Shown one piece after another: positions 8,670 to 55,269 of a stretch of DNA of 64,000 bases (position 1 is the stretch's first letter; the number at the start of each line of letters is the position of its first letter). The notes under the pieces are model-generated. The model searched no databases. It saw only the letters and a program-made list of their open reading frames with translations, and was not told the origin of the DNA. Made by a program: the position numbers and the translations under genes. This stretch comes from Bacteroidia bacterium (GTDB lineage: Bacteria; Bacteroidota; Bacteroidia; UBA4408): positions 5,271 to 69,270 of the forward strand of contig JBIICS010000001.1 in NCBI GenBank assembly GCA_044238735.1. The letters are read 5' to 3'.

Positions 8670-8701
8670 GTTGTTTTAAAATTTAGTGTTAATATTCGTT
8701 C

Positions 8702-8727
8702 AAAAAAAAAGCCCCATTACTGGGGCT
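8702..8727 (-). terminator. Intrinsic terminator ending the minus-strand adhesin-locus transcript.
   Basis: The hairpin AGCCCCA-ttac-TGGGGCT is followed on the minus strand by a run of nine U (an A9 run on the plus strand). Confidence 0.65.
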
Positions 8728-8950
8728 TGAAATATCATAAAATCAAACTAGCCCCTAAATCGGAGTTTGGTAAAATAAAAAAAATAGTTGGCATTATTTA
8801 GGTAACTTGTAATCATGCTGCGAATATATTAAAATTTATATACTTCTAACTTACATTAAGGATTAACACAGCGTTTACTCTCTTCTTCTAATTAGGGCCT
8901 ATTTTAATCATTTACATTATTAATTATGAGTTTTACAAGTTTATAACTAT

Positions 8951-8965
8951 ATAATAAATAGGGCT
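8951..8965 (+). repeat. 15-mer ATAATAAATAGGGCT (containing the ATAAATAGGGC box), left border of the adhesin locus.
   Basis: An exact match to 19869-19883. It starts 2 bp beyond the stop codon of the 458-aa gene. Confidence 0.5.
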
Positions 8966-8966
8966 T

Positions 8967-10343
8967 TTAATCAATATTTGACACCAGATACTTGTGATAA
9001 TCACATTTTAAATTAGGGATAATTTCAGAACTCTTTATTTTTGAGCCCATTGCTAATTTCTTAAAGTGCGCTAAAACCAATGCATTATCATTACCGGTAA
9101 AAACTTTGTTTTTGTTAATATTTAAATAACGTTCGGTTCTACCGATCAAGTTTAAGGCAAAATCTTCATCGCGTTTTTTTAACCAATATAAAATCTCTAA
9201 TAACCGAGACCAGATGTTTATATAAAAATTGTCGCCAGATGTTAAATTGTTAAGATTCTGCTTAAGTGTTTTATAATCTTCTTCCGTATAAGCAACCAGC
9301 GATCTTATCAGAATCAGCATTTCATTATTATCATTTTTAAAGTACTTCAGCTTACTTCCGTTAATTAATTTATTCACCTGGTCGGACTTGCCTTGAAGTA
9401 CCAATAAAAACAAATAATAAAATAAGGTGGCATCATCATAATATTTATATGATTCATTGTGTTCCAGGGTTTTTTTAACCGTGGCAGTTAATGGTGCTAT
9501 GGGCCATCCAAAATGAAAGCCTGCACTAATCTTAGTAAACAGAACCCTTCTCGTCCACTTTTGCTTTTCGTCGCTTTTGCTTAAAACAGATGAAACCCTT
9601 CGTTCGCAATTCTCTATATGTTGTTTAAAGAACTCTTCATCACTAAAATGAAGGCGTGCAAGAGAAAGCTCATAAACAATACTGTAAATGGAGTCCTTTG
9701 TTTCTTCTATTAGGTCTTGAAAGTTTTCTAAGGAAGGGAGAATGGCGTTCTCTATAAAAGAAGAATCATCAATATACATATTACTAACTATGTTATAATA
9801 TTCGGATTGATTACGATGATACAACTCCCTGATAAAATTTACTTTTTGCTCTGCCAGTTTTTTAATTTGTTGTGTTGCTTTATCAGTTTGCACTTTTGCA
9901 AAGCTGGTTATAAAATTATCTAAGCAAATACTTTGTGAGATTATATCATCCCTTTTCTTACTCTCTGCAAATGCTTTGTCGAGATAATAATCTAGAAGAT
10001 ATCCGTTGCTCGATCCCAAAAACTCCTGAACCAGAATCATGTTTTTAGGAAGTTCATCCAATTGCAATCGCTTATTCACTTTTACATACTCTATTTCTTT
10101 GCAAGCAAAATCTATGAATCTGCGTATCGATTTATCTAAAGTTGGGCTTAATTTTCCGTTTTTAATAAAACAGTTCTCAATCTTGGTGTTTAATTTTTCA
10201 AAATCTTCGTAAGGCCTTTTGGAAAGAACATCATGGAGATATCGATGTCTCTTATCGTTACTTTGCTTACAAATATTAATGATGGTTTTTCCTTCAGAAG
10301 CATCTAGCGTTTCAATTAAATGATATAATCTCTTGCCTTTCAT
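8967..10343 (-). CDS. Hypothetical 458-aa all-helical cytoplasmic protein, the last gene of the adhesin locus.
   Basis: A long ORF lacking a signal peptide. It lies 75 bp downstream of the SprB-repeat gene on the same strand. No motif was recognised. Confidence 0.55.
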   Translation of the reverse strand: MKGKRLYHLIETLDASEGKTIINICKQSNDKRHRYLHDVLSKRPYEDFEKLNTKIENCFIKNGKLSPTLDKSIRRFIDFACKEIEYVKVNKRLQLDELPKNMILVQEFLGSSNGYLLDYYLDKAFAESKKRDDIISQSICLDNFITSFAKVQTDKATQQIKKLAEQKVNFIRELYHRNQSEYYNIVSNMYIDDSSFIENAILPSLENFQDLIEETKDSIYSIVYELSLARLHFSDEEFFKQHIENCERRVSSVLSKSDEKQKWTRRVLFTKISAGFHFGWPIAPLTATVKKTLEHNESYKYYDDATLFYYLFLLVLQGKSDQVNKLINGSKLKYFKNDNNEMLILIRSLVAYTEEDYKTLKQNLNNLTSGDNFYINIWSRLLEILYWLKKRDEDFALNLIGRTERYLNINKNKVFTGNDNALVLAHFKKLAMGSKIKSSEIIPNLKCDYHKYLVSNID

Positions 10344-10418
10344 AGTAATTATTTTTACGTTAATAGAATACCACTCTAAATATAAATTTAGATAATAATT
10401 TCTTGTTTATTATTTTAA

Positions 10419-12815
10419 CTACCTCTTTAGTGTAATATATCCCGAAAATTCTTTTGCTACACCGTTAATGGTGGTGGCGGTTAACAGGTAATAGTATGTT
10501 CCGTCTGGGGCAGTGCCACCAGACTGTGTTTTGCCATCCCAAACACCGTTTACACCATTAAACTCGAAAATTTTAAGTCCCCAACGATTAAATATTACAC
10601 AATTCAAATCTTTATATCCACTTTGTGTTATTTTAAATTCATTATTATCTGTGTCTCCATTTGGAGTATATATATTCGGTATAAATAGCTGTGATATTAT
10701 TATCTTAATGGTATCGCTGGCAACACAGCCAAAAGCATCAACAGCAGTTACCTCAACTATAAACTCTCCCCCTTGTGTGTAGGTATAACTATTTTGACCG
10801 TTTGTGGTTGAAGCCTGTGTTCCATTTCCATAATTCCACGAATACTGAACCGCTGTAGCACTTGTTGCTGTTAAATTTACTAATTGAGGAATGGTTTCGC
10901 TGTATAATGGATCGCCGGATAAACTAACCGATATATTTTGTTCGCCGATATTAACTACCGAATCGGCTTTACAATCGTTTACATCCTTTACTACTATGAA
11001 ATAAGATCCTGATCCTAAATTACCGAAAAGAGGGGTTGTAACGAAATTTGCACCATTATCAATACTGTATTGTATGGGTGTACTACCTCCTAAAACGTTA
11101 ATCTGTAAAGACCCATCTGTTTGATCGCAATGTTCTACATCTATATCTAAAGCACTTATAGTTGGTCCGGGAATATTGCTTAAAGTAACTGTAACGGTAT
11201 CTTTACAATTATTAACATCATTTACTATTACCTGATAAGAGCCGGATGCTAAGCTAATGTAATTAGTTGTACTATTTTGTGAAATTCCATTTAACTGGTA
11301 GGTATATGGAGATGTTCCACCGGTAGTATTAACGGAAATACTCCCATTTGTTTTATCACACTTTTCATCAACTTGCGTAGATACTGAAATAACCGGCGCC
11401 GGTATCTCGGTTACAGAAAACGATAATGAATCTACACAACCGTTAGCATCACTTACATATGCCCAGTAATTTTGAGCTGATTGATTAATAAAAACACTAT
11501 CGGGTTGAGGTGTACCTCCATTTAAAAAGAAACTATAAGGACTATTGCCTCCGGTTGCGTTTAATTCGAAGCTGGCGTTGTTTTGTCCACAAAACTCTGG
11601 TTTAATAATATTTACCGATGTTAAATCAGGACCATTAGCGTTAGTTAAGATAATAGAGGTGTCTGCCGAACACTGCCCTGAACTAACCGTAATGGTGTAT
11701 GTACCCGCCGTAAGGTTTACAAAAATACTGTCGGATTGAAGGGCCCCACCGTTAAGGGCGTATTGTAAAGTTCCTGCAGGCGTGGCATAAATAATCACGG
11801 ATCCACTTGAAGTACAACCGGGCTGAATAATTTTTAAACTATCGATAACGGGCCCCACGCCAATTTGATTTATGGTAAAGAATGTATCTTTTGCACAACC
11901 CGATGCAAATACCTGCAATGTATAATTTCCTGCTGCCAAGTTAATAAAAACTGAATCGGCTTGAGGAGCGCCGCCGTTGATAGAATAGGTAAAAGGACCG
12001 GTTCCGCTTGTAACGGTTACAATCGCTTTTCCTGTATCTTGTCCACACGAAGTACCGGTGGTTGTAATTGTTAAACCTATTGAAGCTCCTATGGGTTGAC
12101 ATATTCCATTACATGAGCCCTGGGTAGCATTTGAACCCAAACTCCATACTGAACCACCATCAACCGAACGTGAAACCGTTTTGCCTATAAACGCTGCGCC
12201 TACGGCAGAAGAAGAACAATCGCCTATATAAACAATACTGGTAATATCTTTAGCCATGCCTAATACAGCGGGAGTACATGGGCCCCCCGGAGAACAGAGA
12301 ACGTTATCAAATTCACCTCCTGTATTTATATTGTTTGCGTTTGTGGCCCAATAAATAGCATCTAATGGATTTCCGGTAGGATCGTAAAGGGCAATGTAAC
12401 CGTTACCATTGTTTAAGTGCCAGCGATTATTATAGCAGATGTTATTGGTTAAGCGCTCGTTAAAAAGGTTAACATCTACGTTTGGGCCTGCGCCAATTGT
12501 AATAAATCCGTGAGGCGGTATTTTAGTGCCAATAGGAAAAGAGTAGGCACCGTAATTAGTACCATCGGAAGTATTGGATCCTAATATAAAGCAACTTATG
12601 TCTGCCGAGTCGCACCCATTCTTATTATATAACTCTATCCATTCTTGTCCGGTGCCTGTGTTGTTTAACAATGACTGTATGTTGGCGTTAGTATTGTCAC
12701 CAGTTGGAACACCATAGTTAGTTCCCGGCATTACCATAACCTCGTTAATCACAACCTGCGATTGGGCTTTTAAACCTAAGGAAAGAGCAAAAAATGTGTA
12801 TAATAATTTTTTCAT
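10419..12815 (-). CDS. T9SS cargo adhesin with an N-terminal lamin-tail domain, an SprB-type repeat array, a PKD/Ig-like region and a type-B (gliding motility-associated, CHU_C) C-terminal domain.
   Basis: Signal peptide '..LKAQSQ'. The lamin-tail motif is 'VINEVMVMPG...EWIELYNKNGCDSADISCFIL'. It carries six or more repeats of the form 'C..NGS(I/L)...GG..PY.Y.(L/I)NG......F.NL..G.Y...V.D.N.C'. The C-terminus is 'IPNIYTPNGDTDNNEF...FNRWGLKIF...WDGK...PDGTYYY'. Confidence 0.85.
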   Translation of the reverse strand: MKKLLYTFFALSLGLKAQSQVVINEVMVMPGTNYGVPTGDNTNANIQSLLNNTGTGQEWIELYNKNGCDSADISCFILGSNTSDGTNYGAYSFPIGTKIPPHGFITIGAGPNVDVNLFNERLTNNICYNNRWHLNNGNGYIALYDPTGNPLDAIYWATNANNINTGGEFDNVLCSPGGPCTPAVLGMAKDITSIVYIGDCSSSAVGAAFIGKTVSRSVDGGSVWSLGSNATQGSCNGICQPIGASIGLTITTTGTSCGQDTGKAIVTVTSGTGPFTYSINGGAPQADSVFINLAAGNYTLQVFASGCAKDTFFTINQIGVGPVIDSLKIIQPGCTSSGSVIIYATPAGTLQYALNGGALQSDSIFVNLTAGTYTITVSSGQCSADTSIILTNANGPDLTSVNIIKPEFCGQNNASFELNATGGNSPYSFFLNGGTPQPDSVFINQSAQNYWAYVSDANGCVDSLSFSVTEIPAPVISVSTQVDEKCDKTNGSISVNTTGGTSPYTYQLNGISQNSTTNYISLASGSYQVIVNDVNNCKDTVTVTLSNIPGPTISALDIDVEHCDQTDGSLQINVLGGSTPIQYSIDNGANFVTTPLFGNLGSGSYFIVVKDVNDCKADSVVNIGEQNISVSLSGDPLYSETIPQLVNLTATSATAVQYSWNYGNGTQASTTNGQNSYTYTQGGEFIVEVTAVDAFGCVASDTIKIIISQLFIPNIYTPNGDTDNNEFKITQSGYKDLNCVIFNRWGLKIFEFNGVNGVWDGKTQSGGTAPDGTYYYLLTATTINGVAKEFSGYITLKR

Positions 12816-13227
12816 GATAAAAATAACTAGGGCAAAATTAGGGTAAATCTACCGTTTTAGAAATCAAATTGTCCTATTTTGTCACATCTATAAATCATGT
12901 TCCAAACCATAATTTTTTAAAAAAGTATAAACAGGCACTGCTAATGGAAGATGATTTTCTATTTATTGGTTCATTAAAACATAAGCCAATAATGGATATT
13001 AAAGAATATATATAATAATCCCGATTTAATAACTTAGTAAAGTTTCGTTACGCGTGATCGAAATAAAAAATAAAACGCCCTACTTGTTTCGGCTTATTTT
13101 TAATTACAAATACGGCACTTTCTAATTAAAATTTAATCTAATAATTGGAAGTAGCCTATTTTAACATTTTTGTCCCGACTAACTCCATTTTTAGAACTGG
13201 ATTAAACCGTAAGATTTAAGTTACAGA

Positions 13228-16200
13228 TTAATAATCGACACTATTTTTTAGCGCATGAAAATTATAAAGAATTTCGTTGCTGGATCCAACAACCTGAAAG
13301 AAATAAAGACCCGTTTTAAGATTATCCAGGCTAATTAGGGCATTGCCATCTATATTATATAGGGTTTTCACCAATCTTGAATCGGACGAGAATATGTTAA
13401 CGGTTAAATTGGACTCGTTTATATTTTTTAATTGAATAGAATTAGAGAACGGGTTGGGATAAAAGCCTGGTTTTAGTTGTTCCTTGCAATTAATGTAAAC
13501 CAGATCGCTATACGCCGATGTACCGTCGAAATCTACTTGTTTAATACGATAATAGGTAACGCCCAGACTGGAAATACCTAAATCGTTATACTTATAATTT
13601 AATGTACTGGAAGAATTTCCTGCCCCTTTAATCGTTCCAATAGCATCAAAGGTTTCTCCGTTAGTGCTTTTCTCAATAACAAAATAATCATTATTTAATT
13701 CTGATTCGGTAGACCAGGAAAGGCTGGTGCCTTTACTACTGCAGTTAGCACTTAAGTTTGAGAATTTTACGGGTAAAGGGGTAGTGCATGTTTGACAGCC
13801 AAACGGTGCTTCAATATAAAATGTGGAGGCTGCACCTCCGTTTCCGTCTATATACAGGTAATAGGTTTGACCAATTGTTAATCCTGACAGATTAAATTGA
13901 ACATTGCCTGAAATCCCGTTAACATAAGGGTCTGCTTGTGCTTCGAGGTAGGGGGAGAAGTTGGCATTGAATTCTGGGCATCCGCCGCTTGGTACGCTAT
14001 AGGTTCCAGAACTGCATCCGCCTGATCGGGAAAAAATGATGGGCTGCGTTTCTATTTGGTTAATACCGCTGTGAATGCCGCTTAGAGTAAGATAAGCTGT
14101 TGTTGCTGATGCAATAAAGGAGAACCAGGCGCTGTTATTGTTTGCTCCGTTCCAGGAACAGCCGGCCGTTGTGGTTCCGGGCCATGTTGAGGCATCTTCA
14201 CTGGCATACCCATTATTTGTACCTATGGTAACAAATCCATCTGAACCAATGCATGCAACGCCTGTACATTCATTATTGGCCGAACTAGTTGTTAAATCAT
14301 TTGTTTTTATTGTTGGCCCAAATATGAGTTCCACACTGCTGAAGCTGATGCCTGAACCCGAACCGTCGTCTTGCTCGCACATGGAAAATGTCCAATTTCC
14401 GTTTGGATTTTGATTGTTAAAGGTGCTTGCAAAGGAGTTGTCGGTTTCAACAGCGTAGTATCCTATAGAATAGGGGAACCAGGCTCCTGGAGAGCTGTAT
14501 TGATTTACTCTCTCCAAAGCCGGATGATCTCTGAATTTAATATTTGCATAGGTCGAGGTAGTTGAGGCACCGCCTAAATTGGAAATGAAATTGTATACAG
14601 TGCCTGTTGGGGAGGTTAAACTGAAGTCGTAGGTTGACAAATCTCTGAGACAGCTAGAGCTGCCAATATTTACATTTATCTGAATAAGCTGGTTGGTGCT
14701 TGTGTTAAGTAAACTCAAGCCTGAAACGGCAATCGTTCTGGTTAAACATTCTGAGGTTGTTGAAGCAGATCCCCAGCCACCACAAGCTACAGAAGTAGTG
14801 TTTGAAAAGATATTTTGCTGCAGAACAAAAAGTATTGCGCCACCACTTGTTACTGATCCACAGGAATTAGTTACAACACACCTGTATTGGTAACCATTAA
14901 AGGTGTTTGTGGGATTTGTAATTTGAAGGGTTGATGTTGTTGTTCCACTATAGAGTGCTGAATTAGAAATATTCGACCAACTGCTGCCTCCGTTTGTACT
15001 AACTTCCCATTGATAGCTCGCTCCGGTTAGAGGAACGGGCAAGACCCCAAAGGATGCGTTGCCAGATTGGTTGTAGACTGTGTCAGAAACTGGATTTCCT
15101 TCAATTTGGATACCTATCGCCATAGCGATTATATTCGAGCTTAATGCGCTGGCCCAAGATGATGTACAGTTTGCTTTAGCCAGTCTCCTGAACCAAGTTG
15201 TCTGACTTAATAATCCGGGATCATACGTTGCTGATGTGGCGCCAAGGATATCGGAATATCCGGTTCCAGAATTACTGGTGGACTGTTGCCATTTGTATTC
15301 GTAGGGGCAACTTGTTCCTGATGGTAGAGTTAAAGACGATATTGTTGTAGGGTCGAACGCTGCACAATTTGACTGAGCATTGCCTATTGTGCCACCATTG
15401 TTAACATTTATACAACTTACGGTCATCTCAATAACATTAGATTCAGCGGCCCCCGACCAATTGCTTTGGCAGTTTACGCGAGCCAGTCTTTTATACCATG
15501 TGGTTTGGCTGATTACACCGGGGTCATAGGTGGTACTGTTCGATGAACCAATGTCTGCAAATCCCGATGAAGAACTTGTTGTAGACTGCTGCCATTTGTA
15601 TTCCAGAGTGCCGTTTTGCCCGCTGGGAAGACTCACAGATGTAATGGTAGTTGGGTCGAATGATCCGCAGTTACTGCTTTGTGCGTTGCCGATAGATCCT
15701 GCACTGGTAGGGTTAAAACAGGGGGGGAGAATAGTTAAGCGAATTACAGGTCTGCTTGTAGATCTCGCAGAAACAGTTGTGAAACCACAACCAACACCTC
15801 CACCTGAACCTGTTCCTCCGTCGGATCGCTGATATTTTGTGCAGGTATACCCAGGGCTTGTTATATTCAATTCTCCTTGAGAAGTATTTGGATCTTGCCT
15901 TCCCCAACAAATCTGAATAATAATGTTTGAAGTTCCGTCCCAACTGAATAATGTGGAGAAATTGATGGTTCTCCATCCTGTTGAGGAGAAGGCACTTTCG
16001 GAAGTACTAGAGTATACAGTGGTTACCGCATCCATATCGCCTGCGGTAAAATCGGTTTGAGCGGTAGAGGCAATCCCAATGGCGAAGGAACTCAATGTGT
16101 TTGATGCGGATGAAATATTCAGGGAAATTTGGGAAAGACTTCCAGCACTTCCTCCTGCGGCAGTTATCTCACTGGCTCTGATTAAGTATTGAGTTTTAGC

Positions 16201-16368
16201 GCTTCGCCAGGTAGTTCTAATTCCAACGAAGGCATCATTTGTACTGGTAGTTCCCAATGTCCCAAGTGTGATTGTCGTCTGTCCCGCAACATCATTTAGA
16301 ACAAAAAAACACGCCAGCAACCAGATAAAAGGACTAATAAATTTGATATTGTAAATTTTGTATTTCAA
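13228..16368 (-). CDS. Giant secreted adhesin-like protein (1046 aa), Ser/Thr/Gly/Asn-rich, with Ig-like modules and a type-A T9SS C-terminal sorting domain.
   Basis: It has a signal peptide, an internal tandem duplication of ~100 aa and an Ig-like module ('YQWEVSTNGGSSW...YRCVVTN'). The C-terminal 'FYPNPFSNSIQLKN...GLYFFQV' is the Por_Secre_tail pattern. Confidence 0.8.
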   Translation of the reverse strand: MKYKIYNIKFISPFIWLLACFFVLNDVAGQTTITLGTLGTTSTNDAFVGIRTTWRSAKTQYLIRASEITAAGGSAGSLSQISLNISSASNTLSSFAIGIASTAQTDFTAGDMDAVTTVYSSTSESAFSSTGWRTINFSTLFSWDGTSNIIIQICWGRQDPNTSQGELNITSPGYTCTKYQRSDGGTGSGGGVGCGFTTVSARSTSRPVIRLTILPPCFNPTSAGSIGNAQSSNCGSFDPTTITSVSLPSGQNGTLEYKWQQSTTSSSSGFADIGSSNSTTYDPGVISQTTWYKRLARVNCQSNWSGAAESNVIEMTVSCINVNNGGTIGNAQSNCAAFDPTTISSLTLPSGTSCPYEYKWQQSTSNSGTGYSDILGATSATYDPGLLSQTTWFRRLAKANCTSSWASALSSNIIAMAIGIQIEGNPVSDTVYNQSGNASFGVLPVPLTGASYQWEVSTNGGSSWSNISNSALYSGTTTSTLQITNPTNTFNGYQYRCVVTNSCGSVTSGGAILFVLQQNIFSNTTSVACGGWGSASTTSECLTRTIAVSGLSLLNTSTNQLIQINVNIGSSSCLRDLSTYDFSLTSPTGTVYNFISNLGGASTTSTYANIKFRDHPALERVNQYSSPGAWFPYSIGYYAVETDNSFASTFNNQNPNGNWTFSMCEQDDGSGSGISFSSVELIFGPTIKTNDLTTSSANNECTGVACIGSDGFVTIGTNNGYASEDASTWPGTTTAGCSWNGANNNSAWFSFIASATTAYLTLSGIHSGINQIETQPIIFSRSGGCSSGTYSVPSGGCPEFNANFSPYLEAQADPYVNGISGNVQFNLSGLTIGQTYYLYIDGNGGAASTFYIEAPFGCQTCTTPLPVKFSNLSANCSSKGTSLSWSTESELNNDYFVIEKSTNGETFDAIGTIKGAGNSSSTLNYKYNDLGISSLGVTYYRIKQVDFDGTSAYSDLVYINCKEQLKPGFYPNPFSNSIQLKNINESNLTVNIFSSDSRLVKTLYNIDGNALISLDNLKTGLYFFQVVGSSNEILYNFHALKNSVDY

Positions 16369-16423
16369 GCTGTTTTTTGCTATATCACAAATTTGACGAT
16401 ACCATAATGAAAGAAAAAAGCAT

Positions 16424-16445
16424 AAATAGGGCGAATGCCCTATTT
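16424..16445. promoter_or_regulatory. Perfect 9-bp-stem hairpin AAATAGGGC-gaat-GCCCTATTT that contains a copy of the ATAAATAGGGC box, 56 bp upstream of the giant adhesin gene.
   Basis: The inverted repeat is visible directly in the sequence. It lies in the divergent promoter region between 16368 and 16954. Confidence 0.4.
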
Positions 16446-16953
16446 ATTTCTGAGAAAATTATTAGACCTTTGAGTGTTTAAAGGCCTCTCTGGTTGTTGT
16501 CTGCCTTAATTAAAGCGTGATTAAATTTTTGGTTCTACTATTAGTTAAAAAATGGCTTTTGGAAATACTTTGTGGTGTTTTTTTAGATTTACCTATCTAA
16601 CCTTTAAAATAGTATCCCCATTTATTACTAATTATAAATCCGATTTAAAACTAATGAAAAAAATATACTTTTGATTTATCTAAACCAATAAAAAATATTC
16701 AATTTATAATTTTGCAGTAAAGGTAAGTATTTACTAACTGTTTATACCTTTGTTTACCTTTTAAATACGTTCATATATCATACGAGATAATCTTTAATAT
16801 TTGACTATTAAATATGGCTATTTTAAATAAACATTTGATATTTTATAGACTATATGTGCTATAAATATAAATTAAAGAATAGGGCATATTTGCCCATATT
16901 AATTCGCTAAAAAAAAATAGGTCTGCTAAATTTGAATAAAAGCTATTAAACCA

Positions 16954-19872
16954 ATGAAACGATTATATATTGCTACCCTGTTAATGACCTTGAGCATAGC
17001 TTCGTTGGCTCAGGTTGTGATTAATGAAGTAATGCATAAACCAGGTCCAAACAATAACACGAACCAAGGTATTAGACGAAAAGAATATGTGGAGATATAC
17101 AATAAAGGGTGTTCTCCCGTTGATATCAGTTGTTGGGTGGTAGGTTCTGCCGGAATGGGTATTCAAACAGTGACTAATCCTTCTTATATAGGGGCCTTTC
17201 AGTTTCCTACCGGAACCATTATTAATCCAGGACAACACTTGGTTGTGGGTGGCACCGAAACTCAAAATAACACTGCATACAATGCCGCCGACATTGATTT
17301 TCAGGTGAGTCAGTTTTTAAACACCAACACCTGTGATCCTAATACCAACTGGCTTTTGCCTAATGGTGATGGTTGGATTGCTTTATATGACGACACCGGA
17401 ACTCCCGTTGATGCTGTTTATTGGTCGTTCAGCTCAACGGCTCCAAATTTGGCAACAGATGACGATTATGCATCAAACCCATGTGTTCCTTCCGCTTGTA
17501 GTGGTATCACCTCTTTAAGATCAGCCAGACAAATTATTGCTAATTTTCCAACCCGAATTTCATTTACAGGTTCCGCAACTTCAAACGATTTAACCTTTAG
17601 CAGACTTCCTGATGGGGGAACCTGGACGCGCAACGTAGCCCCAAGTATTGCTGGCTCTAACCAGTGTAATAGTGGACAATGCTCGAGTGCGCCCTCTTTT
17701 CAGCTTAGTTCTACCTCTACTGCTCCATCTTGTGGCGCCAGTAATGGAAGCATAAATCTAACGGCAAGTCCAACCGGGGGTGGTATTACTTACACCTATA
17801 CCTGGACACCTAACGTTTCCAGCTCATCATCTGCTTCAAATATTGCTTCGGGTACATATCAAATTAAAATTACTTCTTCAACCGGGTGTGAAAAAGACAC
17901 TAGTATAACTTTAACCAGCGGAAATGCTCCTTCCGCTATTGTTGTAAATCCTACCAACCCTTCTTGTGGTCAATCTAACGGAAGCATTAACTTAGGCGAT
18001 GTTACAGGCGGCGTAGGGCCTTATAATTATAGCTTAAATGGAGGTGCCTATTCTACTTTGCTTTCTTACCCTAACCTGGCTTCGGGCACCTACACACTTT
18101 CGGTAAGAGACTCTAACGGATGTATTTATAACGCGCCGGATGTTACTTTAAGTAACGGTTCGGGGCCAAGTGCCATCGCCACTACAATCTCTAATCCAAG
18201 CTGTGGACAAGCTAACGGGGCTATCAATTTAGGAACAGTAACCGGTGGTGTAGCGCCTTACACTTATAGCATTAATGGAGGTGCCTATTCTACTTTGCTT
18301 TCTTACCCTAACCTGGCTTCGGGCACCTACACACTTTCGGTAAGAGACGCTAACGGATGTATTTTTAATGCCCCTGATATCAATCTAACAAGCACTGCAG
18401 GACCAACTGCCGTAAACGTTACAACAGTGGATCCACAATGTGGACAATCTAACGGATCATTCACCGTTAATTCGGTAACTGGAGGATCCGGGCCATATCA
18501 GTACAGTGTTAATGGGGCAACGTATGTTAGTGGAGTTAGCACTTTTAATAATCTGGCAGCAGGGAGTTATAGTCTCGATATAAAGGATAACAACGGATGT
18601 ATTTATAATGCACCCGCTGTTAATATCAATAACTCTAATGCTCCTACTGCGGTTGCCGTTAATTTAACTCAGCCTACTTGTGGCTTAAGTAATGGAGAGG
18701 TAAATCTTGGGAATGTTACCGGAGGTACAGCGCCCTATAGTTATAATTTTAATGGACAAGGCAACAGTGGTAATTTCCAATACTCTGGGTTATCGGGGGG
18801 CAACTACAGTTTATCGGTTACAGATGCAGCGGGTTGTATCTATAATGCGCCAGCCATTATCTTAAATAGTAGCAATGCGCCAAGTGATATTTTGTACACC
18901 ATAACAAACGCAAAATGTGGTTCAAATAATGGCGCCATAAATATAACAAGCACAACAGGCGGTAGCGCTCCTTTCAATTATAGTTTAAACGGCGGACCTT
19001 CAACCTCAACATTATCCTACAGTAATCTTTCGGCTGGTAATTACTCTTTACAAGTTACTGATAACGGAGGGTGCACCTATATTGAAACCAACATAGTTGT
19101 AACCGTAACCCCGGCAATTACAAATATTATAAGCATTGTAACGAACTCAACCTGTTCTCAACCCAATGGCGCTATTGATATTAGTAATGTTCTAGGCGGA
19201 ACTCAGCCTTTTACTTATAACTTTAACAATGGAAGCCAATTTACCGCTCAAACCTCTTATGCCGGCCTCTCTGCCGGAAGTTATACCATTACTGCACAAG
19301 ACGCAAACTTGTGTTTATACACAGTAAGTGTAAGTGTTCAAAACGACAACAGTATTAATGGACCTCAACAACTTTTTACAACACTTACCCAAATTGAATG
19401 TGGAGCTAGTAATGGGGCAATAAAGATAGATTCGGTTAAAGGTGGCGTTTCACCTTATCAATATAAGTTTGAAAACAGCGTATACTCTTCTCAACTAATC
19501 TATGAAAACTTGCCTTCCGGAATTTATAACATCAGTATTAAAGATTCTAACAGTTGTGTTTTAGACACCATTGTGGTTATTCCAGAGAGCTTTGATGCCA
19601 GCGGTATATTTATTCCAAATGCTTTTACCCCAAACAATGATGCCTTTAATGCCAGCTGGGGACTTGAGGCAAACTGTGCAAAATCAGTTGAAGGTTATAT
19701 CTATAATAGATGGGGCGAAAAAATTGCTGACATTACAGATAAGGGTTTCCGCTGGGATGGAAAATATAAAAATCGTGAAGCTCCAATGGATGTATATGCT
19801 TATACTATTGAAATTACTTATTTATCCGAAAGAAAAGAGAAAAGATCAGGAGTGATTAGTTTGATAAGATAA
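16954..19872 (+). CDS. Second T9SS cargo adhesin with a lamin-tail domain, SprB-type repeats (10 or more) and a type-B (CHU_C) C-terminal domain.
   Basis: Signal peptide '..SLAQ'. Lamin-tail motif 'VINEVMHKPG...EYVEIYNKGCSPVDISCWVV'. The repeats have the form 'CGQSNGSINLG.VTGG..PY.YS.NGG.Y.....NL.SG.Y.L.V.D.NGCI'. The C-terminus is 'IPNAFTPNNDAFN...YNRWGEKI...WDGKY'. Confidence 0.85.
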   Translation: MKRLYIATLLMTLSIASLAQVVINEVMHKPGPNNNTNQGIRRKEYVEIYNKGCSPVDISCWVVGSAGMGIQTVTNPSYIGAFQFPTGTIINPGQHLVVGGTETQNNTAYNAADIDFQVSQFLNTNTCDPNTNWLLPNGDGWIALYDDTGTPVDAVYWSFSSTAPNLATDDDYASNPCVPSACSGITSLRSARQIIANFPTRISFTGSATSNDLTFSRLPDGGTWTRNVAPSIAGSNQCNSGQCSSAPSFQLSSTSTAPSCGASNGSINLTASPTGGGITYTYTWTPNVSSSSSASNIASGTYQIKITSSTGCEKDTSITLTSGNAPSAIVVNPTNPSCGQSNGSINLGDVTGGVGPYNYSLNGGAYSTLLSYPNLASGTYTLSVRDSNGCIYNAPDVTLSNGSGPSAIATTISNPSCGQANGAINLGTVTGGVAPYTYSINGGAYSTLLSYPNLASGTYTLSVRDANGCIFNAPDINLTSTAGPTAVNVTTVDPQCGQSNGSFTVNSVTGGSGPYQYSVNGATYVSGVSTFNNLAAGSYSLDIKDNNGCIYNAPAVNINNSNAPTAVAVNLTQPTCGLSNGEVNLGNVTGGTAPYSYNFNGQGNSGNFQYSGLSGGNYSLSVTDAAGCIYNAPAIILNSSNAPSDILYTITNAKCGSNNGAINITSTTGGSAPFNYSLNGGPSTSTLSYSNLSAGNYSLQVTDNGGCTYIETNIVVTVTPAITNIISIVTNSTCSQPNGAIDISNVLGGTQPFTYNFNNGSQFTAQTSYAGLSAGSYTITAQDANLCLYTVSVSVQNDNSINGPQQLFTTLTQIECGASNGAIKIDSVKGGVSPYQYKFENSVYSSQLIYENLPSGIYNISIKDSNSCVLDTIVVIPESFDASGIFIPNAFTPNNDAFNASWGLEANCAKSVEGYIYNRWGEKIADITDKGFRWDGKYKNREAPMDVYAYTIEITYLSERKEKRSGVISLIR

Positions 19873-19883
19873 TAAATAGGGCT
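19869..19883 (+). repeat. 15-mer ATAATAAATAGGGCT, right border of the adhesin locus.
   Basis: An exact match to 8951-8965. It overlaps the stop codon of the second SprB-repeat gene. Confidence 0.5.
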
Positions 19884-20033
19884 AAATTATTTTCTTTAAT
19901 TTATTTATCAGCTTATTAGGTTATAAATTTGCATCATAAAAAATAATAAAACATGAAAACAGGTGCAATTGAACAATTAATCTTACACACAACAAAGTAT
20001 TATTAATTTCTTATGGTTTTTAGTTAATTAAAA

Positions 20034-20058
20034 GGTCGCCTTGGCGGCCTTTTTTTTT
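20034..20058 (+). terminator. Intrinsic terminator downstream of the second SprB-repeat gene.
   Basis: GGTCGC-cttg-GCGGCC, with one G.U pair in the stem, followed by T9. Confidence 0.65.
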
Positions 20059-31075: not shown

Positions 31076-33127
31076 TTACTCGATAGAGAATCGCTTTACA
31101 ACAGAATAATTGTTATAATTAATTCTAACTAAATATAACCCTTTACTTAACAAGCTTATGTCTAACTGTTGTTTATTTCCTTCAATGGCTCTGGTATTAA
31201 TAATCTGCTTCCCTAATAGGTCTGAGACCTCGATATTATGAGGTTTAGAGTTCGCGCTATTAAACTCTATGTTAAGCACTTTAGAGGCTGGATTTGGATA
31301 AAGTATAAAATTATCTGTAATGCCTTCATTAATTCCCGTAACATTTGAATATAGATTGATATCATCTATATACAAGTTATTACCGGTATTATTGGTATAC
31401 TCAAATTTAACAAGCACATTAGATGCATTTAATACATTGTTAATGGTAATTAATTCTGTTCTCCATTCATTGGGTTGAGGAATAAAAGCATTCGATTGAT
31501 TAGGTGCTGTTGATAAATTATCACCATATTTAAAGTAACGCTGAAACCACGTTAAACCACAATTAGAACTTACAAGAACCCTTAAACGATTTTCTGACGC
31601 TGTTGTTTGCTGAGCATACGCTAACTTAAAGGATAAGGTTGGCGAAGGTATAGAAGACACATCTATACCGGGTGTTACAATAGCATCTACCTGATTTATT
31701 CCTTGAGATGCCCAGACGTTGTTGAGCGCTATAGAACTATTTCCGCTTGCTGATACTGAATTATTTTGTTGAAAAGCAAAAGCATCATCGTTAATTACAG
31801 TTAGTTCCGATAGAGCCTGATTAAAGTCTTCAAATCCTTCTACATAATAATTTTGGTAAAGGGCCACATTATTAAGAACATTAATAAACTGATTTTTTTC
31901 AATACTATCTGTACCTGTAATGTTGCCCGACTTAAGTTTTACTTTATACGTTCCGGGGACCGGATAAGTAATTTGAGGATTTTGTAGGTTAGATGTGGAC
32001 GGGTTTCCTCCCTCAAATTCCCAATACCAGCTGTTAGCATCAGCGTTTGAGGATAGATCGGTAAACTTAACCAGAGATTGAGCACAAACGATTCGCTTAT
32101 CCGAAGTAAAATCGGCGCGAGGAGAACAAGGCGCCGGATCATTAAAACGAATCTCGTCTGTACCGGTAGCAACAAGATTTTCTTCCTTCCATAAATTATT
32201 TCTATTTGCAATATTGCTGTTGAGTATACCAAGCATGCGCGACACTTGACCAACAGTAAACATTCTTCCGCAGTAAGAATACTCCATATAATTTTGAACA
32301 TTTTCTATAACCCCGGGAGTGCATTTAATACCGTTTACATTACAAGATACCCAACCTTCAGTAACAGGAGTATCGGATACTTCATCATCACCGCAGGATA
32401 TCCCCGGATCGTTAGTATCTCCCCACACATGTTGTAATTCTAAATAATGGCCCACTTCGTGGGTTAATGCTCTGGCTCTCGTATAATTACCGGTGCCAAT
32501 AGATCCTACATAGTCAGCTAAAATAACTATACCGTCTATCTGTGGCCATCCATCTGCACTGGTAGGATAATACGCATAACCCGCGGCACCAAATGAGATT
32601 GACTTTACGGTCCAAATATTTAAATACTTAGAAGGATCCCACTGATTAAATTTTACATCATCCTCTCCTGTATTGGTCAATTCAGAAAAAACGTGATTTA
32701 TGCCGTTGGTACAATTTCCTTGAGGATCTATTTTTGCTAATCTGAATTCAATTGTGGAAACACCCTTTAAGTCCTTAAATGCAGGCACTATGTCTGCAGT
32801 ATCTAAATTGGTAGCCTGAAAATCCTCGTTTAATATTCTAACCGCATCTCTTACTTGCTCATCCGATATATTCTCGCCCCCGTAAACATGCATAATATGA
32901 AAAACAACAGGTATAACCAGTGTTTGATTTGAATTAATCGAATTAGAGAAATTTCTATTTTTCTTTGCGGCGGCGGATGCTCTTAAGTTAGGATATTTTT
33001 TATAAAGCCTGTTCATGGCTTCCTGTTGCCCACAATGTTTAAGGTCTTGGGCTTTAATCTTTAATCCAACCATTAGAATCAGTAAAGAGAGTATATATTT
33101 CATCTTTTTATTTATTAAGTGCTTCAA
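31076..33127 (-). CDS. M43 (pappalysin/cytophagalysin-like) zinc metalloprotease with a type-A T9SS C-terminal sorting domain.
   Basis: Metzincin motif 'HEVGHYLELQHVW'. Signal peptide '..IKAQ'. C-terminal 'LYPNPASKVLNIEF...GLYLVRI'. Confidence 0.85.
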   Translation of the reverse strand: MKHLINKKMKYILSLLILMVGLKIKAQDLKHCGQQEAMNRLYKKYPNLRASAAAKKNRNFSNSINSNQTLVIPVVFHIMHVYGGENISDEQVRDAVRILNEDFQATNLDTADIVPAFKDLKGVSTIEFRLAKIDPQGNCTNGINHVFSELTNTGEDDVKFNQWDPSKYLNIWTVKSISFGAAGYAYYPTSADGWPQIDGIVILADYVGSIGTGNYTRARALTHEVGHYLELQHVWGDTNDPGISCGDDEVSDTPVTEGWVSCNVNGIKCTPGVIENVQNYMEYSYCGRMFTVGQVSRMLGILNSNIANRNNLWKEENLVATGTDEIRFNDPAPCSPRADFTSDKRIVCAQSLVKFTDLSSNADANSWYWEFEGGNPSTSNLQNPQITYPVPGTYKVKLKSGNITGTDSIEKNQFINVLNNVALYQNYYVEGFEDFNQALSELTVINDDAFAFQQNNSVSASGNSSIALNNVWASQGINQVDAIVTPGIDVSSIPSPTLSFKLAYAQQTTASENRLRVLVSSNCGLTWFQRYFKYGDNLSTAPNQSNAFIPQPNEWRTELITINNVLNASNVLVKFEYTNNTGNNLYIDDINLYSNVTGINEGITDNFILYPNPASKVLNIEFNSANSKPHNIEVSDLLGKQIINTRAIEGNKQQLDISLLSKGLYLVRINYNNYSVVKRFSIE

Positions 33128-44287: not shown

Positions 44288-45019
44288 TTATTCAAAAACT
44301 TCTTCTAGCACCGTTAAAGATTTAATATTTCCGAGCGAGTGCAAATAAAGATCCAGGTACTTAACAAGCAAGCGAAGCAACTCTCTTCTTTCCGAATTAT
44401 CAATTATCAAACTATCTACATCCTCAAAGTAATCTAGCGAAAATAGCTTAAACAACCATTTAGATGTAATTACACTTATGGGATAATAAATGGGTTGTTG
44501 TTCTTGTAAATGTCCGGTTTCTATATTAAAATAGGGTTTAGAGCTGCTATACTCCTCGTCGGGGCAAATACCAAAATGTTTACACAGATGTGAAAGAAAG
44601 CCGAGATGAAAATTTTTTGGATTATTTAATGAACTATTTAAATAAAGTATGGCACTAAATGTAAAATCGAATAAAGAATCCTCTCCGTGATGATCGCGCA
44701 GACATGCCCCCAGAACTTCACCCAGAAAAAGTTTAATGTTATTCTTATAAATTTCAAAAGAGGGACTTATGTTGCTCTGGATATTTAACTTTATCTCCTT
44801 TAAGCTTACAAACCCATCGTTTGGCTTTATTTCGTATTCCAGATCGAGTAAAGTAAGGGGCATTAACAATCCGCTTTTTTTATTCTTACTTTTTCCGGAA
44901 GTACTTCGCTTGATAATGGCACTTACAACTCCGTTGTATTCGGTGAAAATTTTTAAGATTACAGCGTTATCGCTATATGGGATTTGTTTAAGCACTAGTC
45001 CCCTACCCTTAACAAACAT
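44288..45019 (-). CDS. recO: DNA repair protein RecO.
   Basis: N-terminal OB-fold 'GRGLVLKQIPYSDNAVILKIFTEYNGVVSAI'. Size 243 aa. Confidence 0.8.
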   Translation of the reverse strand: MFVKGRGLVLKQIPYSDNAVILKIFTEYNGVVSAIIKRSTSGKSKNKKSGLLMPLTLLDLEYEIKPNDGFVSLKEIKLNIQSNISPSFEIYKNNIKLFLGEVLGACLRDHHGEDSLFDFTFSAILYLNSSLNNPKNFHLGFLSHLCKHFGICPDEEYSSSKPYFNIETGHLQEQQPIYYPISVITSKWLFKLFSLDYFEDVDSLIIDNSERRELLRLLVKYLDLYLHSLGNIKSLTVLEEVFE

Positions 45020-47583: not shown

Positions 47584-48303
47584 TTAGCGTTTTATTAGCT
47601 TGTTATTTATCATCTTTTCAAAAAAGGCATCTTTATACTCTTTGCCAATAGATATTTGTTGCCCATCCAGCATATTTATCATATTGCCCTCTACCTCCTT
47701 AATTTTTGTCATTGAAACAATATACGAACGATGAACCCTAATAAAAATATCTTGCGGTAATTGACTTTCGATGTTTTTTAAATTAACTAATGCTAAGAAA
47801 CGCTCCTTACCCGTATGAATCTTAACATAATCTTTTAATCCTTCAATAAACAATACATCGTTATAATTTAAGCGAACATATTTTTTATCGGTTTTTATAA
47901 TTAAATAATCTTTCCCTCCTTCTTTTCCTTGCTTAGAGGCCGCATTTTGATTAAGCCTGTTTACTAATTTATCAACCGTTTTTAAGAAACGATCGAGTGT
48001 AATGGGTTTTAAAAGATAATCGGCGGCATCTAACTCAAATCCTTTAACCGCATAATTACTGTATGCTGTGGTAAAAACAACAAGTGGTTTATTTTCGAGC
48101 GAAGCAACAAAGTCTAAGCCATTAATAGAAGGCATCTCTATGTCAATAAACATGATATCTACCTTTTTTTCTTTAATTAACGGAAGCGCATCAAGCGGGC
48201 TTGAAAAATCGCCTATACAATTAATTAAATCTATTTGGGTTATATAATCTTTTAAACCCTGGCGAGCCATTGGCTCATCGTCAATTACAATACAGTTAAA
48301 CAT
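47584..48303 (-). CDS. LytTR-family two-component response regulator.
   Basis: The receiver domain ('IVIDDEPMARQG...DIMFIDIEMP') is followed by a C-terminal LytTR DNA-binding domain. Confidence 0.85.
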   Translation of the reverse strand: MFNCIVIDDEPMARQGLKDYITQIDLINCIGDFSSPLDALPLIKEKKVDIMFIDIEMPSINGLDFVASLENKPLVVFTTAYSNYAVKGFELDAADYLLKPITLDRFLKTVDKLVNRLNQNAASKQGKEGGKDYLIIKTDKKYVRLNYNDVLFIEGLKDYVKIHTGKERFLALVNLKNIESQLPQDIFIRVHRSYIVSMTKIKEVEGNMINMLDGQQISIGKEYKDAFFEKMINNKLIKR

Positions 48304-48304
48304 A

Positions 48305-54900: not shown

Positions 54901-55269
54901 GTGAAGGGCCTACAATCCATTCTTTTACTTATACTTTCCAATGCATTTATGACGCTGGCTTGGTACGGACACTTAAGATTTAATAAAATTAAATGGTTTG
55001 AGTCGTGGGGGATTCTGGGCATAATTATAGTTAGCTGGGGAATTGCCCTATTTGAATATATGTTGCAAGTTCCCGCTAACCGATTAGGCTTTAAGGAAAC
55101 AGGCGGACCCTTTAATCTTATTCAATTAAAAATTATACAAGAGGTTATTTCCATTATTGTTTTTGTTGTTTTTTCAGTAACATTTTTCAGAAACGAGGAG
55201 TTTAGATGGAATCATGTATTTGCTTTTGCATTAATCATTGTAGCCGTTTATCTGGTTTTTAAAAAATAA
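54901..55269 (+). CDS. DMT-superfamily small membrane protein (DUF486-like).
   Basis: A 122-aa protein with four transmembrane helices, 'LSNAFMTLAWYGHLRF'. Possible GTG start. Confidence 0.6.
   Translation: MKGLQSILLLILSNAFMTLAWYGHLRFNKIKWFESWGILGIIIVSWGIALFEYMLQVPANRLGFKETGGPFNLIQLKIIQEVISIIVFVVFSVTFFRNEEFRWNHVFAFALIIVAVYLVFKK

Follow-up and report, generated by a model that had tools for sequence, protein, structure and literature searches.

The window (the whole 64,000-nucleotide stretch of Bacteroidia DNA analyzed here) contains a strain-variable cluster of genes encoding three cell-surface proteins that are exported first by Sec and afterwards by a type IX secretion system (T9SS). Beside them lies a gene encoding a 458-aa protein, and we hypothesize, at a probability of roughly one in two, that this protein serves the cluster as its local one-component regulator of transcription, acting through a conserved box, AATAGGGCAAWT, and a sensing solenoid. 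A broader and more tentative proposal is that its family consists of Bacteroidota-specific one-component regulators that combine an unseen DNA-binding domain with a solenoid of the RNPP/MalT-domain-III type and switch single T9SS adhesin genes via the same box.

PorXY and SigP are global regulators. The published studies on type-B substrates considered here treat secretion and sorting (PMC12618676, PMC9143113), and we found nothing in the literature on these substrates about the switching of single surface adhesins. If the broader proposal is true, these proteins would be the first regulators that are both dedicated to T9SS cargo and locally encoded, as well as Gram-negative structural counterparts to the RNPP receptors of Firmicutes. 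The locus offers a compact candidate system made up of a single gene, a 12-nt box, and three promoters as targets. Should the 458-aa protein prove not to be a regulator, what is left is a T9SS adhesin cluster that is variable but otherwise ordinary.

Organization of the locus

The features discussed below are as follows.

8709..8728 (-), intrinsic-terminator-like hairpin, eight pairs and then a T-run, about 240 nt past the 458-aa gene
8967..10343 (-), 458-aa gene, candidate local regulator, unnamed Bacteroidota family
10419..12815 (-), 798-aa T9SS type-B cargo gene
12864..12880 (-), variant box AAAATAGGACAATTTGA, whose T precedes the ATG of the 798-aa gene by 61 nt
13228..16368 (-), 1046-aa T9SS type-A cargo gene, TTG start
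13899..16319 (-), allelic cassette, 2.4 kb of the type-A gene, codons ~17-823
16369..16953, 585-bp spacer between the divergent type-A and LTD-SprB genes, 25% GC
16422..16447 (-), perfect 11-bp inverted repeat ATAAATAGGGC-N4-GCCCTATTTAT with a TAGGGCA box
16876..16900 (+), box AGAATAGGGCATATTTGCCCATATT, an imperfect palindrome, its T 74 nt upstream of the ATG of the 972-aa gene
16954..19872 (+), 972-aa T9SS type-B cargo gene
20030..20053 (+), terminator-like hairpin, 10 pairs and then a T-run, 3' of the 972-aa gene

All four open reading frames that a first-pass annotation of this DNA had claimed are present at its coordinates, and the ORF check gave the same 75-bp gap between the 798-aa and 458-aa genes; 412 bp separate the 1046-aa gene from the downstream 798-aa gene. 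The annotation had also described a 585-bp AT-rich control region with all three cargo genes arranged divergently around it. Its size and low GC content hold (the window averages about 35%), but only the 1046-aa (-) and 972-aa (+) genes diverge from it, and a small-ORF scan of this spacer found none that was convincing. The terminator placed at 8702-8727 exists as a hairpin whose computed coordinates are 8728-8709(-), and it is probably the end of the 798-aa/458-aa transcription unit.

Three T9SS cargo proteins

Domains were called with Pfam and NCBIfam HMMs at curated cut-offs, and all cargo-domain matches reported here exceed them. The lamin-tail domain (LTD), the SprB repeats, and the type-A and type-B T9SS C-terminal domains (CTDs) read from the sequence in the first pass were all recovered, and the CTDs together with the signal peptides bear out the assignment of the three proteins as T9SS cargo. 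The 798-aa protein consists of a signal peptide, an LTD (PF00932, 42.5 bits; gathering cut-off, 34.3), SprB repeats (PF13573, 58.2 bits, E = 6e-16, four stretches or about five repeats), a PKD domain (32 bits), and a type-B CTD (CHU_C, PF13585, 67.9 bits; TIGR04131, 46.8 bits, cut-off 35). In the 972-aa protein, the signal peptide is followed by an LTD (67.1 bits, same cut-off), eight SprB repeats (153.8 bits, E = 8e-46, eight stretches; 8 x 79 aa, with a DNA period of 237 nt), and CHU_C (47.1 bits; TIGR04131, 53.8 bits, again above 35). The Sec signal peptides of these type-B cargo, MKKLLYTFFALSLGLKAQ and MKRLYIATLLMTLSIASLAQ, were recognized by eye at the N termini of the translations, and the LTD (QVVINEVM...) follows directly, as it does in other secreted bacterial proteins with this domain.

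The two LTD genes had been taken for paralogues; they have a common architecture, but the identity of their products is only 31%. "Giant" does not suit adhesins of 798 to 1046 aa, nor is the domain order unusual, since 58 of the 120 top-ranking homologue clusters combine LTD, SprB, and CHU_C, under the JGI name "gliding motility-associated-like protein." The suggestion that the LTD fusion is uncharacterized stands insofar as we found no characterized LTD-SprB-CHU_C protein in the literature examined, where a single paper names the lamin tail domain alongside type IX secretion, and only in passing; the architecture itself is common.

The 1046-aa protein is S/T/G/N-rich and multidomain and ends in a type-A CTD (Por_Secre_tail, PF18962, 30.9 bits, cut-off 27; TIGR04183, 28.2 bits, cut-off 23), a class that, according to the literature, is handled by PorV. 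Its C-terminal ~530 aa are homologous to type-A cargo that adjoin genes of the 458-aa family in lineages L007 (41-45% identity) and L009 (30-31%). PorZ and two more type-A cargo genes are encoded within the same window.

The type-B cargo resemble SprB of Flavobacterium johnsoniae and other type-B substrates (PMC12618676, PMC9143113) in having a Sec signal peptide and SprB repeats followed by a type-B CTD (PF13585/TIGR04131) and in coming from a member of the Bacteroidota with T9SS genes, here PorZ. A related locus, L010, even has a canonical porP/sprF directly downstream of its LTD-SprB gene. Gliding adhesins of the SprB type travel over the cell surface and are needed for gliding. SprB of F. 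johnsoniae is about 6,500 aa long, whereas the LTD proteins of the window have 800-970 aa and an N-terminal lamin-tail domain. The window also differs in having no porP/sprF gene anywhere: no ORF of at least 200 aa matched PF11751, and tblastn of the window with the L010 PorP/SprF protein gave no match. The slot downstream of the 798-aa gene, where porP/sprF often sits, is taken by the 458-aa gene. A porP/sprF-like shuttle gene directly downstream of type-B cargo is common but not universal, and "orphan" type-B substrates have been described (PMC12618676). Because no such gene is nearby, the two type-B cargo of the window are orphans in this sense, and they presumably use a shuttle encoded elsewhere.

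The 458-aa protein and its family

Searches of Pfam, NCBIfam, PADLOC, and PHROGs gave no above-cut-off match for the 458-aa protein. Its family is small and has no name, with 95 representatives among 1.84 billion proteins, and is found in uncultured Flavobacteriales- and Chitinophagales-type genomes beside LTD, SprB, and type-A cargo. Members have about 450 aa (almost all 445-480 aa) and a mutual identity of 24-41%, and searches for known-family matches returned none for any of them. The predicted structure is all-helical (pLDDT 93.1, pTM 0.83), and neither a signal peptide nor a transmembrane segment was found, in agreement with the initial description of a helical, cytoplasmic protein with no recognizable motif. 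Residues 1-95 form a basic (pI 9.5), highly conserved five-helix domain with the motifs MKGKRLY, DKR, and RRFIDFxxKEIE; this region matched nothing in sequence searches, which detected no known DNA-binding domain. The remainder is modeled as a TPR-like solenoid. The overall fold is like that of NprR, Rap, and MalT domain III, and the best structural neighbors are transcription factors and receptors rather than RNA binders. Foldseek returned generic TPR matches only, and a profile search of the PDB found only the LapB TPR (E about 0.4).

A close analogy is with the RNPP/RRNPP receptors of Firmicutes and phages (NprR, Rap, PlcR, AimR), which are likewise cytoplasmic, have about 350-450 aa, and place a small N-terminal helical domain before a TPR superhelix; the modeled 458-aa fold is RNPP-like, and the gene adjoins those it would regulate. 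There are also differences. Sequence identity is about 10%, with no Pfam TPR or HTH match; the five-helix N-terminal domain, in the place where PlcR, NprR, and AimR have an XRE-type HTH and Rap a three-helix bundle, is not a recognizable XRE-type HTH by sequence. Among the small ORFs in 8670-8966, 12816-13227, and 16369-16953, none was plausible as a propeptide gene with an export signal. Moreover, the 458-aa family occurs in Bacteroidota, not Firmicutes, and a large-scale survey assigns RRNPP systems to the Gram-positive Firmicutes and to mobile elements of these bacteria. The modeled solenoid also resembles the sensor superhelix of domain III of MalT (STAND), but the 458-aa protein is half the size of MalT and has no HMM match to an NTPase/NOD domain or LuxR-type HTH.

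Linkage of the family to cargo genes

In the synteny check, 11 lineages were sampled, and in 7 of them the family gene directly adjoined a T9SS cargo gene with a confirmed CTD (the lineage of the window, L003/L004, L006, L007/8, L009, L010, and L020; binomial P = 1.4e-3 at a generous background of 0.19). In a single reverse test (n = 1), an LTD-SprB-CHU_C homologue picked for its long contig had a family member directly upstream. The proposed association of the 458-aa ORF with adhesin genes in other genomes was thus found again. The family gene is co-directional with cargo genes at short gaps, and the spacers beside family genes at other loci range from 22 to 779 nt.

The short, co-directional gaps are also what may suggest that the protein is cytoplasmic and acts on the neighboring cargo before Sec, as a TPR scaffold or as a chaperone or export factor; the last two are options that the first-pass annotation had listed beside a regulator. 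We regard this as very improbable. T9SS cargo pass the inner membrane via Sec with ordinary signal peptides (PMC12618676), and the cargo beside family genes are heterogeneous (LTD, SprB, and type-A modules without any common domain). The 458-aa family is also much too small, compared with the cargo family, to supply a partner for most LTD-SprB-CHU_C genes, and the conserved DNA box described below would be left unexplained. That box and the fold like NprR, Rap, and MalT domain III favor a regulator.

Inheritance rather than selection may account for part of the linkage, because the genomes have some wider synteny in common: pheA adjoins the family gene in the window and L010, and Lactamase_B-Rhodanese or TauE lies near it in the window, L003, and L019. 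The 458-aa protein could then have a function unrelated to its neighbors, and the box could belong, for example, to an alternative sigma factor or a global surface-protein regulator. The absence of a cargo neighbor in three lineages (L005, L011, and L016-18) and the high-scoring boxes away from family genes (window 55038, L009 12557) fit this explanation, which we consider unlikely but worth serious attention. Against it, adjacency persists although family identity is only 24-41% and the order and orientation of cargo and partner vary among lineages; in L016-18, where cargo is absent, it is the family gene that has a box, 46 nt upstream; and the box is strongly concentrated beside family genes.

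A conserved box upstream of cargo and partner genes

The box AATAGGGCAAWT was first spotted by eye, but the subsequent 8-mer enumeration was unbiased and returned it as the single outstanding 8-mer of family-flanking intergenic DNA (p about 3e-17). Ten copies of the 8-mer TAGGGCAA were counted, spread over 6 of 14 lineage groups, where 0.10 would be expected (p = 3e-17), whereas the next unrelated k-mer reached only 6e-7. Nine boxes fall in 6.7 kb of family-flanking intergenic DNA, compared with nine in the other 227 kb. In L005, L006, L011, L012, and L020, the box was looked for and absent. The window itself has the variants TAGGGCAT and TAGGACAA, and boxes outside it are mostly non-palindromic.

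Both divergent cargo genes of the window have a box 74 nt upstream of the start codon, with its T 47 nt upstream of a -7-like element (CAAATTTG for the 1046-aa gene; TAAATTTG, 16927-16934, for the 972-aa gene). At the 798-aa gene, the T of AAAATAGGACAATTTGA lies 36 nt upstream of TAATTTTG (12840-12833). Overall, the offsets from box to -7-like element are 47, 47, 47, 36, and 58 nt. These elements are consensus matches only, and the TAnnTTTG pattern showed no enrichment across the window as a whole.

The nine partner-flanking boxes and the three upstream of window cargo all point in the same direction as the downstream gene, an orientation that would also suit RNA recognition. The 458-aa protein might accordingly be a helical-repeat RNA-binding protein that recognizes AAUAGGGCA in the leaders of cargo genes, with control exerted on termination, stability, or translation, for instance by blocking formation of a hairpin before the 1046-aa gene. 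There, the inverted repeat that contains the box also scores as a terminator-like hairpin, strong and followed by a T-run (centroid -15 kcal/mol, z = -2.6), weaker hairpins include the box at L010a and upstream of the 972-aa gene, and designed PPR-RNA complexes are among the weak Foldseek matches. We nevertheless judge this reading improbable: no conserved RNA structure was found around the box in L003, L009, and L019, and the top structural neighbors are not RNA binders. Further, the boxes lie upstream of the -7-like elements, at offsets differing by about one helical turn, which would put them outside the transcript.

For the preferred transcription-regulator hypothesis, we envisage that the basic, conserved N-terminal helical domain would bind the box, whose spacing from the cargo -7 element downstream (36, 47, or 58 nt) is roughly in helical phase, and that the C-terminal solenoid would respond to a ligand or to a partner protein and so determine adhesin expression. 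The analysis establishes the domain content, the family, the fold, the gene linkage, and the box with its enrichment and spacing; box binding by the 458-aa protein, its activation or repression of transcription, a ligand, and promoter function of the -7-like matches are inferred from these.

Allelic variation between strains

The locus had been called accessory-looking; however, its position between pheA and rbfA is constant in related strains, and only its allelic content varies. In L001 and L002, the allele of the 798-aa gene is longer and encodes 1257 aa; 459 aa inserted in frame near 11700 contribute another LTD and extra SprB repeats. At the type-A gene, L001 and L015 have a 2.14-kb sequence in place of the cassette at 13899..16319; it is not alignable with the cassette at the nucleotide level, and the flanks are 96.6-98.8% identical. 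Near-identical strains (~98% identity) bear swapped or expanded adhesin alleles, a natural case of allele exchange that is relevant to surface variation, whether from phage or grazer pressure or from substrate specificity.

Cargo proteins of the locus

All four open reading frames (ORFs) were found where the first-pass annotation had placed them, and each of the domains it had claimed in the locus was recovered by HMM searches. The genes, together with the terminator-like hairpins that follow the outer two, are the following.

8728-8709, terminator-like hairpin after the 458-aa gene
8967-10343 (-), 458-aa protein, the partner of the cargo genes
10419-12815 (-), 798-aa protein, type-B type IX secretion system (T9SS) cargo
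13228-16368 (-), 1046-aa protein, TTG start, type-A T9SS cargo
16954-19872 (+), 972-aa protein, type-B T9SS cargo
20030-20053, terminator-like hairpin after the 972-aa gene

In the 798-aa protein, a signal peptide is accompanied by a lamin-tail domain (LTD) that scores 42.5 bits against a cut-off of 34.3, SprB repeats (four HMM-scored stretches; five CGxxNG-type units counted by eye), a PKD domain, and a type-B sorting domain recognised by both CHU_C (67.9 bits) and TIGR04131 (46.8 bits). The 972-aa protein combines a signal peptide, an LTD (67.1 bits), and a type-B sorting domain with eight SprB repeats, which score 153.8 bits and recur every 79 aa (237 nt). The sole HMM match of the 1046-aa protein is a type-A sorting domain (30.9 and 28.2 bits). 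Of the three cargo genes once described as divergently arranged, the 1046-aa and 972-aa genes do diverge from a 585-bp spacer of 25% GC, but the 798-aa gene does not; it follows the 1046-aa gene at a distance of 412 bp. The two LTD proteins, called paralogues, share their architecture; however, they are just 31% identical and are therefore not recent duplicates. Nor is the LTD-SprB-CHU_C order unusual, as had been thought: a search with the full-length 972-aa protein, from which the frequency was taken, found PF00932, PF13573, and PF13585 together in 58 (a manual count) of its 120 best homologue clusters; a word-indexed LTD-only search had returned five fragments. The architecture is a widespread class. 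Literature searches on LTDs with T9SS found nothing relevant and no studied LTD-SprB-CHU_C example; one paper refers in passing to lamin tail domains together with type IX secretion. Proteins of the window also turn up in assemblies from NCBI, JGI, ENA, and Logan, under the names “hypothetical protein” or “gliding motility-associated-like protein,” and the window appears to come from an uncultured member of the Bacteroidota. The three cargo proteins add new members to two known groups, type-A and type-B T9SS substrates. The initial interpretation is supported in part: its adhesin part is ordinary and was somewhat overstated, and it is the idea of a dedicated partner that survives, sharpened into a testable regulator-plus-operator hypothesis.

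Genomic surroundings and secretion

The locus is flanked by housekeeping genes, with prephenate dehydratase and DAHP synthase/chorismate mutase on one side and GNAT, rbfA, methyltransferase, FtsX-type permease, and pdxJ on the other. Roughly 5 of the window's about 55 genes encode T9SS cargo. The window also encodes the T9SS component PorZ and a pair of M43 peptidases that bear type-A sorting domains, from which we conclude that the organism has a T9SS.

31076-33127 (-), M43 peptidase
45019-47322 (-), PorZ
47584-49351 (-), His_kinase gene beside one M43 peptidase gene
49397-51577 (-), M43 peptidase

The His_kinase gene that adjoins one of these peptidase genes is followed by a 239-aa ORF, and a His_kinase-LytTR pair adjoins the partner-family gene in comparison loci L016 and L018. 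In Flavobacterium johnsoniae, type-B substrates require a cognate PorP/SprF shuttle, commonly encoded directly downstream, and “orphan” type-B substrates use a common shuttle encoded elsewhere (PMC12618676). No PorP/SprF-like gene was found among window ORFs of at least 200 aa, and tblastn with the PorP/SprF protein of L010 gave no match in the window; its two type-B proteins belong to the orphan class. An Rfam scan of the window returned one tRNA and nothing else. Between the stop codon of the 458-aa gene and its terminator, about 240 nt (8729-8966) are untranslated, with no convincing ORF (maximum, 22 to 23 aa) and no Rfam match.

An undescribed family of solenoid proteins

The 458-aa protein had no HMM match above threshold. 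A word-indexed search found four relatives, and a metagenome scan with a nine-sequence alignment found four loci in two lineages; an exhaustive profile search of 1.84 billion proteins recovered 95 representatives (50% clustering), 65 of them below 1e-30 and almost all 445 to 480 aa long. No Pfam family matched any of the 65 aligned members, and the family is undescribed in every library searched (Pfam, NCBIfam, PADLOC, and PHROGs). Sub-threshold matches to TipAS and MobL, in at most 3 of the 65 members, were dismissed as noise, and a defence-system or phage origin was dropped because the PADLOC and PHROGs searches were empty. Profile searches of PDB sequences with the whole family and with the N-terminal 100 residues gave nothing meaningful.

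Conservation is concentrated in residues 1 to 95 (MKGKRLYxLL, an invariant D30 followed by K31-R32, R74-R75-F-I-D-F, and an invariant E85), and the N-terminal domain has a pI of 9.5. The protein lacks a signal peptide and transmembrane segments (maximal 19-residue hydropathy, 1.02). An AlphaFold model built on the 65-sequence alignment (pLDDT, 93.1; pTM, 0.83) has 24 helices, arranged as a five-helix N-terminal domain and a TPR-like solenoid, and an earlier, poorer model gave the identical top three fold matches. Foldseek against the PDB returned generic TPR matches alone, with E values of 4.5e-4 or weaker and poor TM-scores. The fold resembles RNPP receptors and MalT domain III, at about 10% identity, which is a likeness rather than membership. 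Compared with RNPP receptors, the protein has no sequence homology, no propeptide gene, and no HTH recognisable by sequence in its N-terminal domain; small propeptide ORFs were sought beside the locus genes, and none was convincing. A literature search on RNPP in Bacteroidetes found nothing relevant. In function, the family would represent a new form of one-component regulator.

Linkage of the family to cargo genes

We compiled the genomic context of 11 lineages, reached through the 458-aa protein.

Neighbours of the family gene in the window and in comparison loci on other contigs
Window, L001, L002, L015: LTD-SprB-CHU_C
L003, L004: LTD with type-A C-terminal domain
L006: PKD-CHU_C and SprB-PKD-CHU_C
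L007, L008: two type-A genes, one of which matches the 1046-aa protein over its C-terminal half (41-45% identity)
L009: type-A gene homologous to the 1046-aa C-terminal module
L010: LTD-SprB-CHU_C, PorP/SprF, type-A gene; pheA on the opposite side, as in the window
L012: truncated DUF11 surface protein
L020: SprB-PKD-CHU_C
L005, L011, L016-18: no cargo neighbour

The conservation of the partner beside adhesin-type cargo, anticipated from the window, extends to 7 of the 11 lineages, in which the immediate neighbour has a confirmed T9SS sorting domain (binomial P = 1.4e-3, at a generous background of 19% of genes with a cargo neighbour). In a reverse test, an LTD-SprB-CHU_C homologue picked solely for its 4.43-Mb contig had a 453-aa family member directly upstream (24% identity over the full length; E, 4e-31). 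These genomes have some wider synteny in common, so part of the linkage stems from inherited gene order; partner and cargo, however, vary among lineages in how they are ordered and oriented relative to each other, which counts against purely inherited order. It is conceivable, if somewhat unlikely, that the linkage is coincidental and that the DNA motif described below belongs to another factor. The fullest cluster, at L010 7766-13578, comprises pheA, the family gene, the LTD-SprB-CHU_C gene, PorP/SprF, and the type-A cargo gene. At L019 6362-12699, an LTD-SprB gene is followed by a collagen-repeat/PTL_trimer protein and not by a PorP gene.

A conserved DNA box upstream of cargo genes

A short motif with a TAGGGCA core, AATAGGGCAAWT, was spotted by eye in printed intergenic sequences before all 8-mers were enumerated in the intergenic DNA (7.8 kb) around family genes and the cargo genes linked to them. 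The outlier in that enumeration was TAGGGCAA, which was expected 0.10 times but occurred 10 times, in 6 of 14 lineage groups (p, 3e-17); the next-ranked k-mers were overlapping words of the same box, and the first unrelated one had a p of 6e-7. Nine copies of TAGGGCAA lie in 6.7 kb of partner-flanking intergenic DNA, against nine in the other 227 kb. The nine partner-flanking boxes and three boxes upstream of the window cargo genes are oriented as the downstream gene. Another TAGGGCA copy, at 12828 on the plus strand, is antisense and precedes the 798-aa start codon by 13 nt, and plus-strand TAGGGCT variants past the stop codons at both locus ends have no downstream gene in their own direction. 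In L016-18, where cargo is absent, the box lies 46 nt upstream of the family gene itself. A literature search on the box sequence found nothing relevant.

The box or a TAGGACA variant also occurs within the family gene (L003 8625-8641, L004 1750-1766, and L009 9202-9218), at codons of the conserved LIDRAN/R402 region (GAT AGG GCA AAT); these copies may have arisen by coincidence from the coding sequence or may mark an internal site. In the spacer that separates mnmG/gidA from a following acyltransferase_3 gene, at window 55038-55054 (-), lies a further high-scoring box, CAAATAGGGCAATTCCC (PWM, 17.8), which points away from any obvious downstream gene.

At both divergent genes, the box lies exactly 74 nt upstream of the start codon.

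16442, box of the 1046-aa gene, within the perfect palindrome ATAAATAGGGC-N4-GCCCTATTTAT
16880, box of the 972-aa gene

Promoter-like elements considered for the cargo start sites were TAAATTTG and CAAATTTG. The Bacteroidetes -7 consensus is TAnnTTTG, and an AAATTTG element matching it lies 47 nt downstream of the box at both divergent genes, the sequence in between being otherwise unrelated. A variant, TAGGACAATTT, precedes the 798-aa ATG by 61 nt and TAATTTTG by 36 nt. Elsewhere, the box-to-(-7) offsets are 47 (L007), 58 (L009), 56 (L003), 72 (L010), and 22 (L016); offsets of 36, 47, and 58 differ by one helical turn. A sigma-70 promoter scan did no better than shuffled sequence (46 versus 43), and the full Bacteroidetes -33/-7 pattern had no match in the locus.

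We propose, with a probability of about 0.5, that the 458-aa protein is a local transcription regulator, given its cytoplasmic nature, receptor-like solenoid, basic and invariant N-terminal domain, and cargo neighbours, and the oriented box upstream of promoter-like elements. It would bind the box upstream of the adjoining cargo genes and so control their transcription locally. From the observed fold, linkage, box, and box spacing we infer the binding, together with a sign of regulation and a signal. RNA folding gave a hairpin around the box at some loci only and no conserved structure, and a regulator acting at the RNA level seems improbable. A role as chaperone or scaffold appears more improbable still. 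The box palindrome upstream of the 1046-aa gene (16422-16447, -) scores as an intrinsic terminator (11 pairs and a T-run; fold z, -2.6) and could be a leader attenuator or the terminator of an unannotated transcript from the 585-bp spacer.

Strain variation

Contigs L001, L002, and L015 come from strains whose flanks are 96.6 to 98.8% identical to the window, and between these flanks two cargo genes differ.

Swapped type-A segment: window 13899-16319, L001 1804-3948, L015 2300-4443
LTD-SprB insertion: window ~11700, L001 6154-7520, L002 1462-2828

In L001 and L015, 2.4 kb of the type-A gene (codons ~17 to 823) is exchanged for 2.14 kb with no nucleotide-level alignment, the breakpoints lying within the signal-peptide codons and about 220 codons ahead of the stop. 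The variable part of the resulting 931-aa allele has about 45% protein identity where aligned, and its first ~190 residues have no counterpart. The LTD-SprB gene of L001 and L002 has an in-frame insertion of 1,367 nt (459 aa), which carries a second, divergent LTD and extra SprB repeats and makes the protein 1257 aa long, against 798 aa. L015 combines the 931-aa type-A allele with the 798-aa LTD-SprB allele, and the combinations in the window, L001, L002, and L015 therefore amount to at least three haplotypes. The position of the locus is fixed and its content mosaic, which would fit surface proteins under diversifying selection. A recently inserted island was rejected, as the position is kept in related strains and as pheA is likewise a neighbour of the family gene in L010, a distant lineage. 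The four-gene locus is bracketed almost to the base by a perfect direct repeat of 15 nt, ATAATAAATAGGGCT, at 8951-8965 and 19869-19883. One copy lies just past the 458-aa stop codon and the other just past the 972-aa stop codon, and the repeat contains the TAGGGCT box variant. We estimate the chance of some 15-nt repeat within 11.6 kb at ~0.2, and yet its placement is striking; the repeats could represent additional boxes or the boundaries of past recombination.
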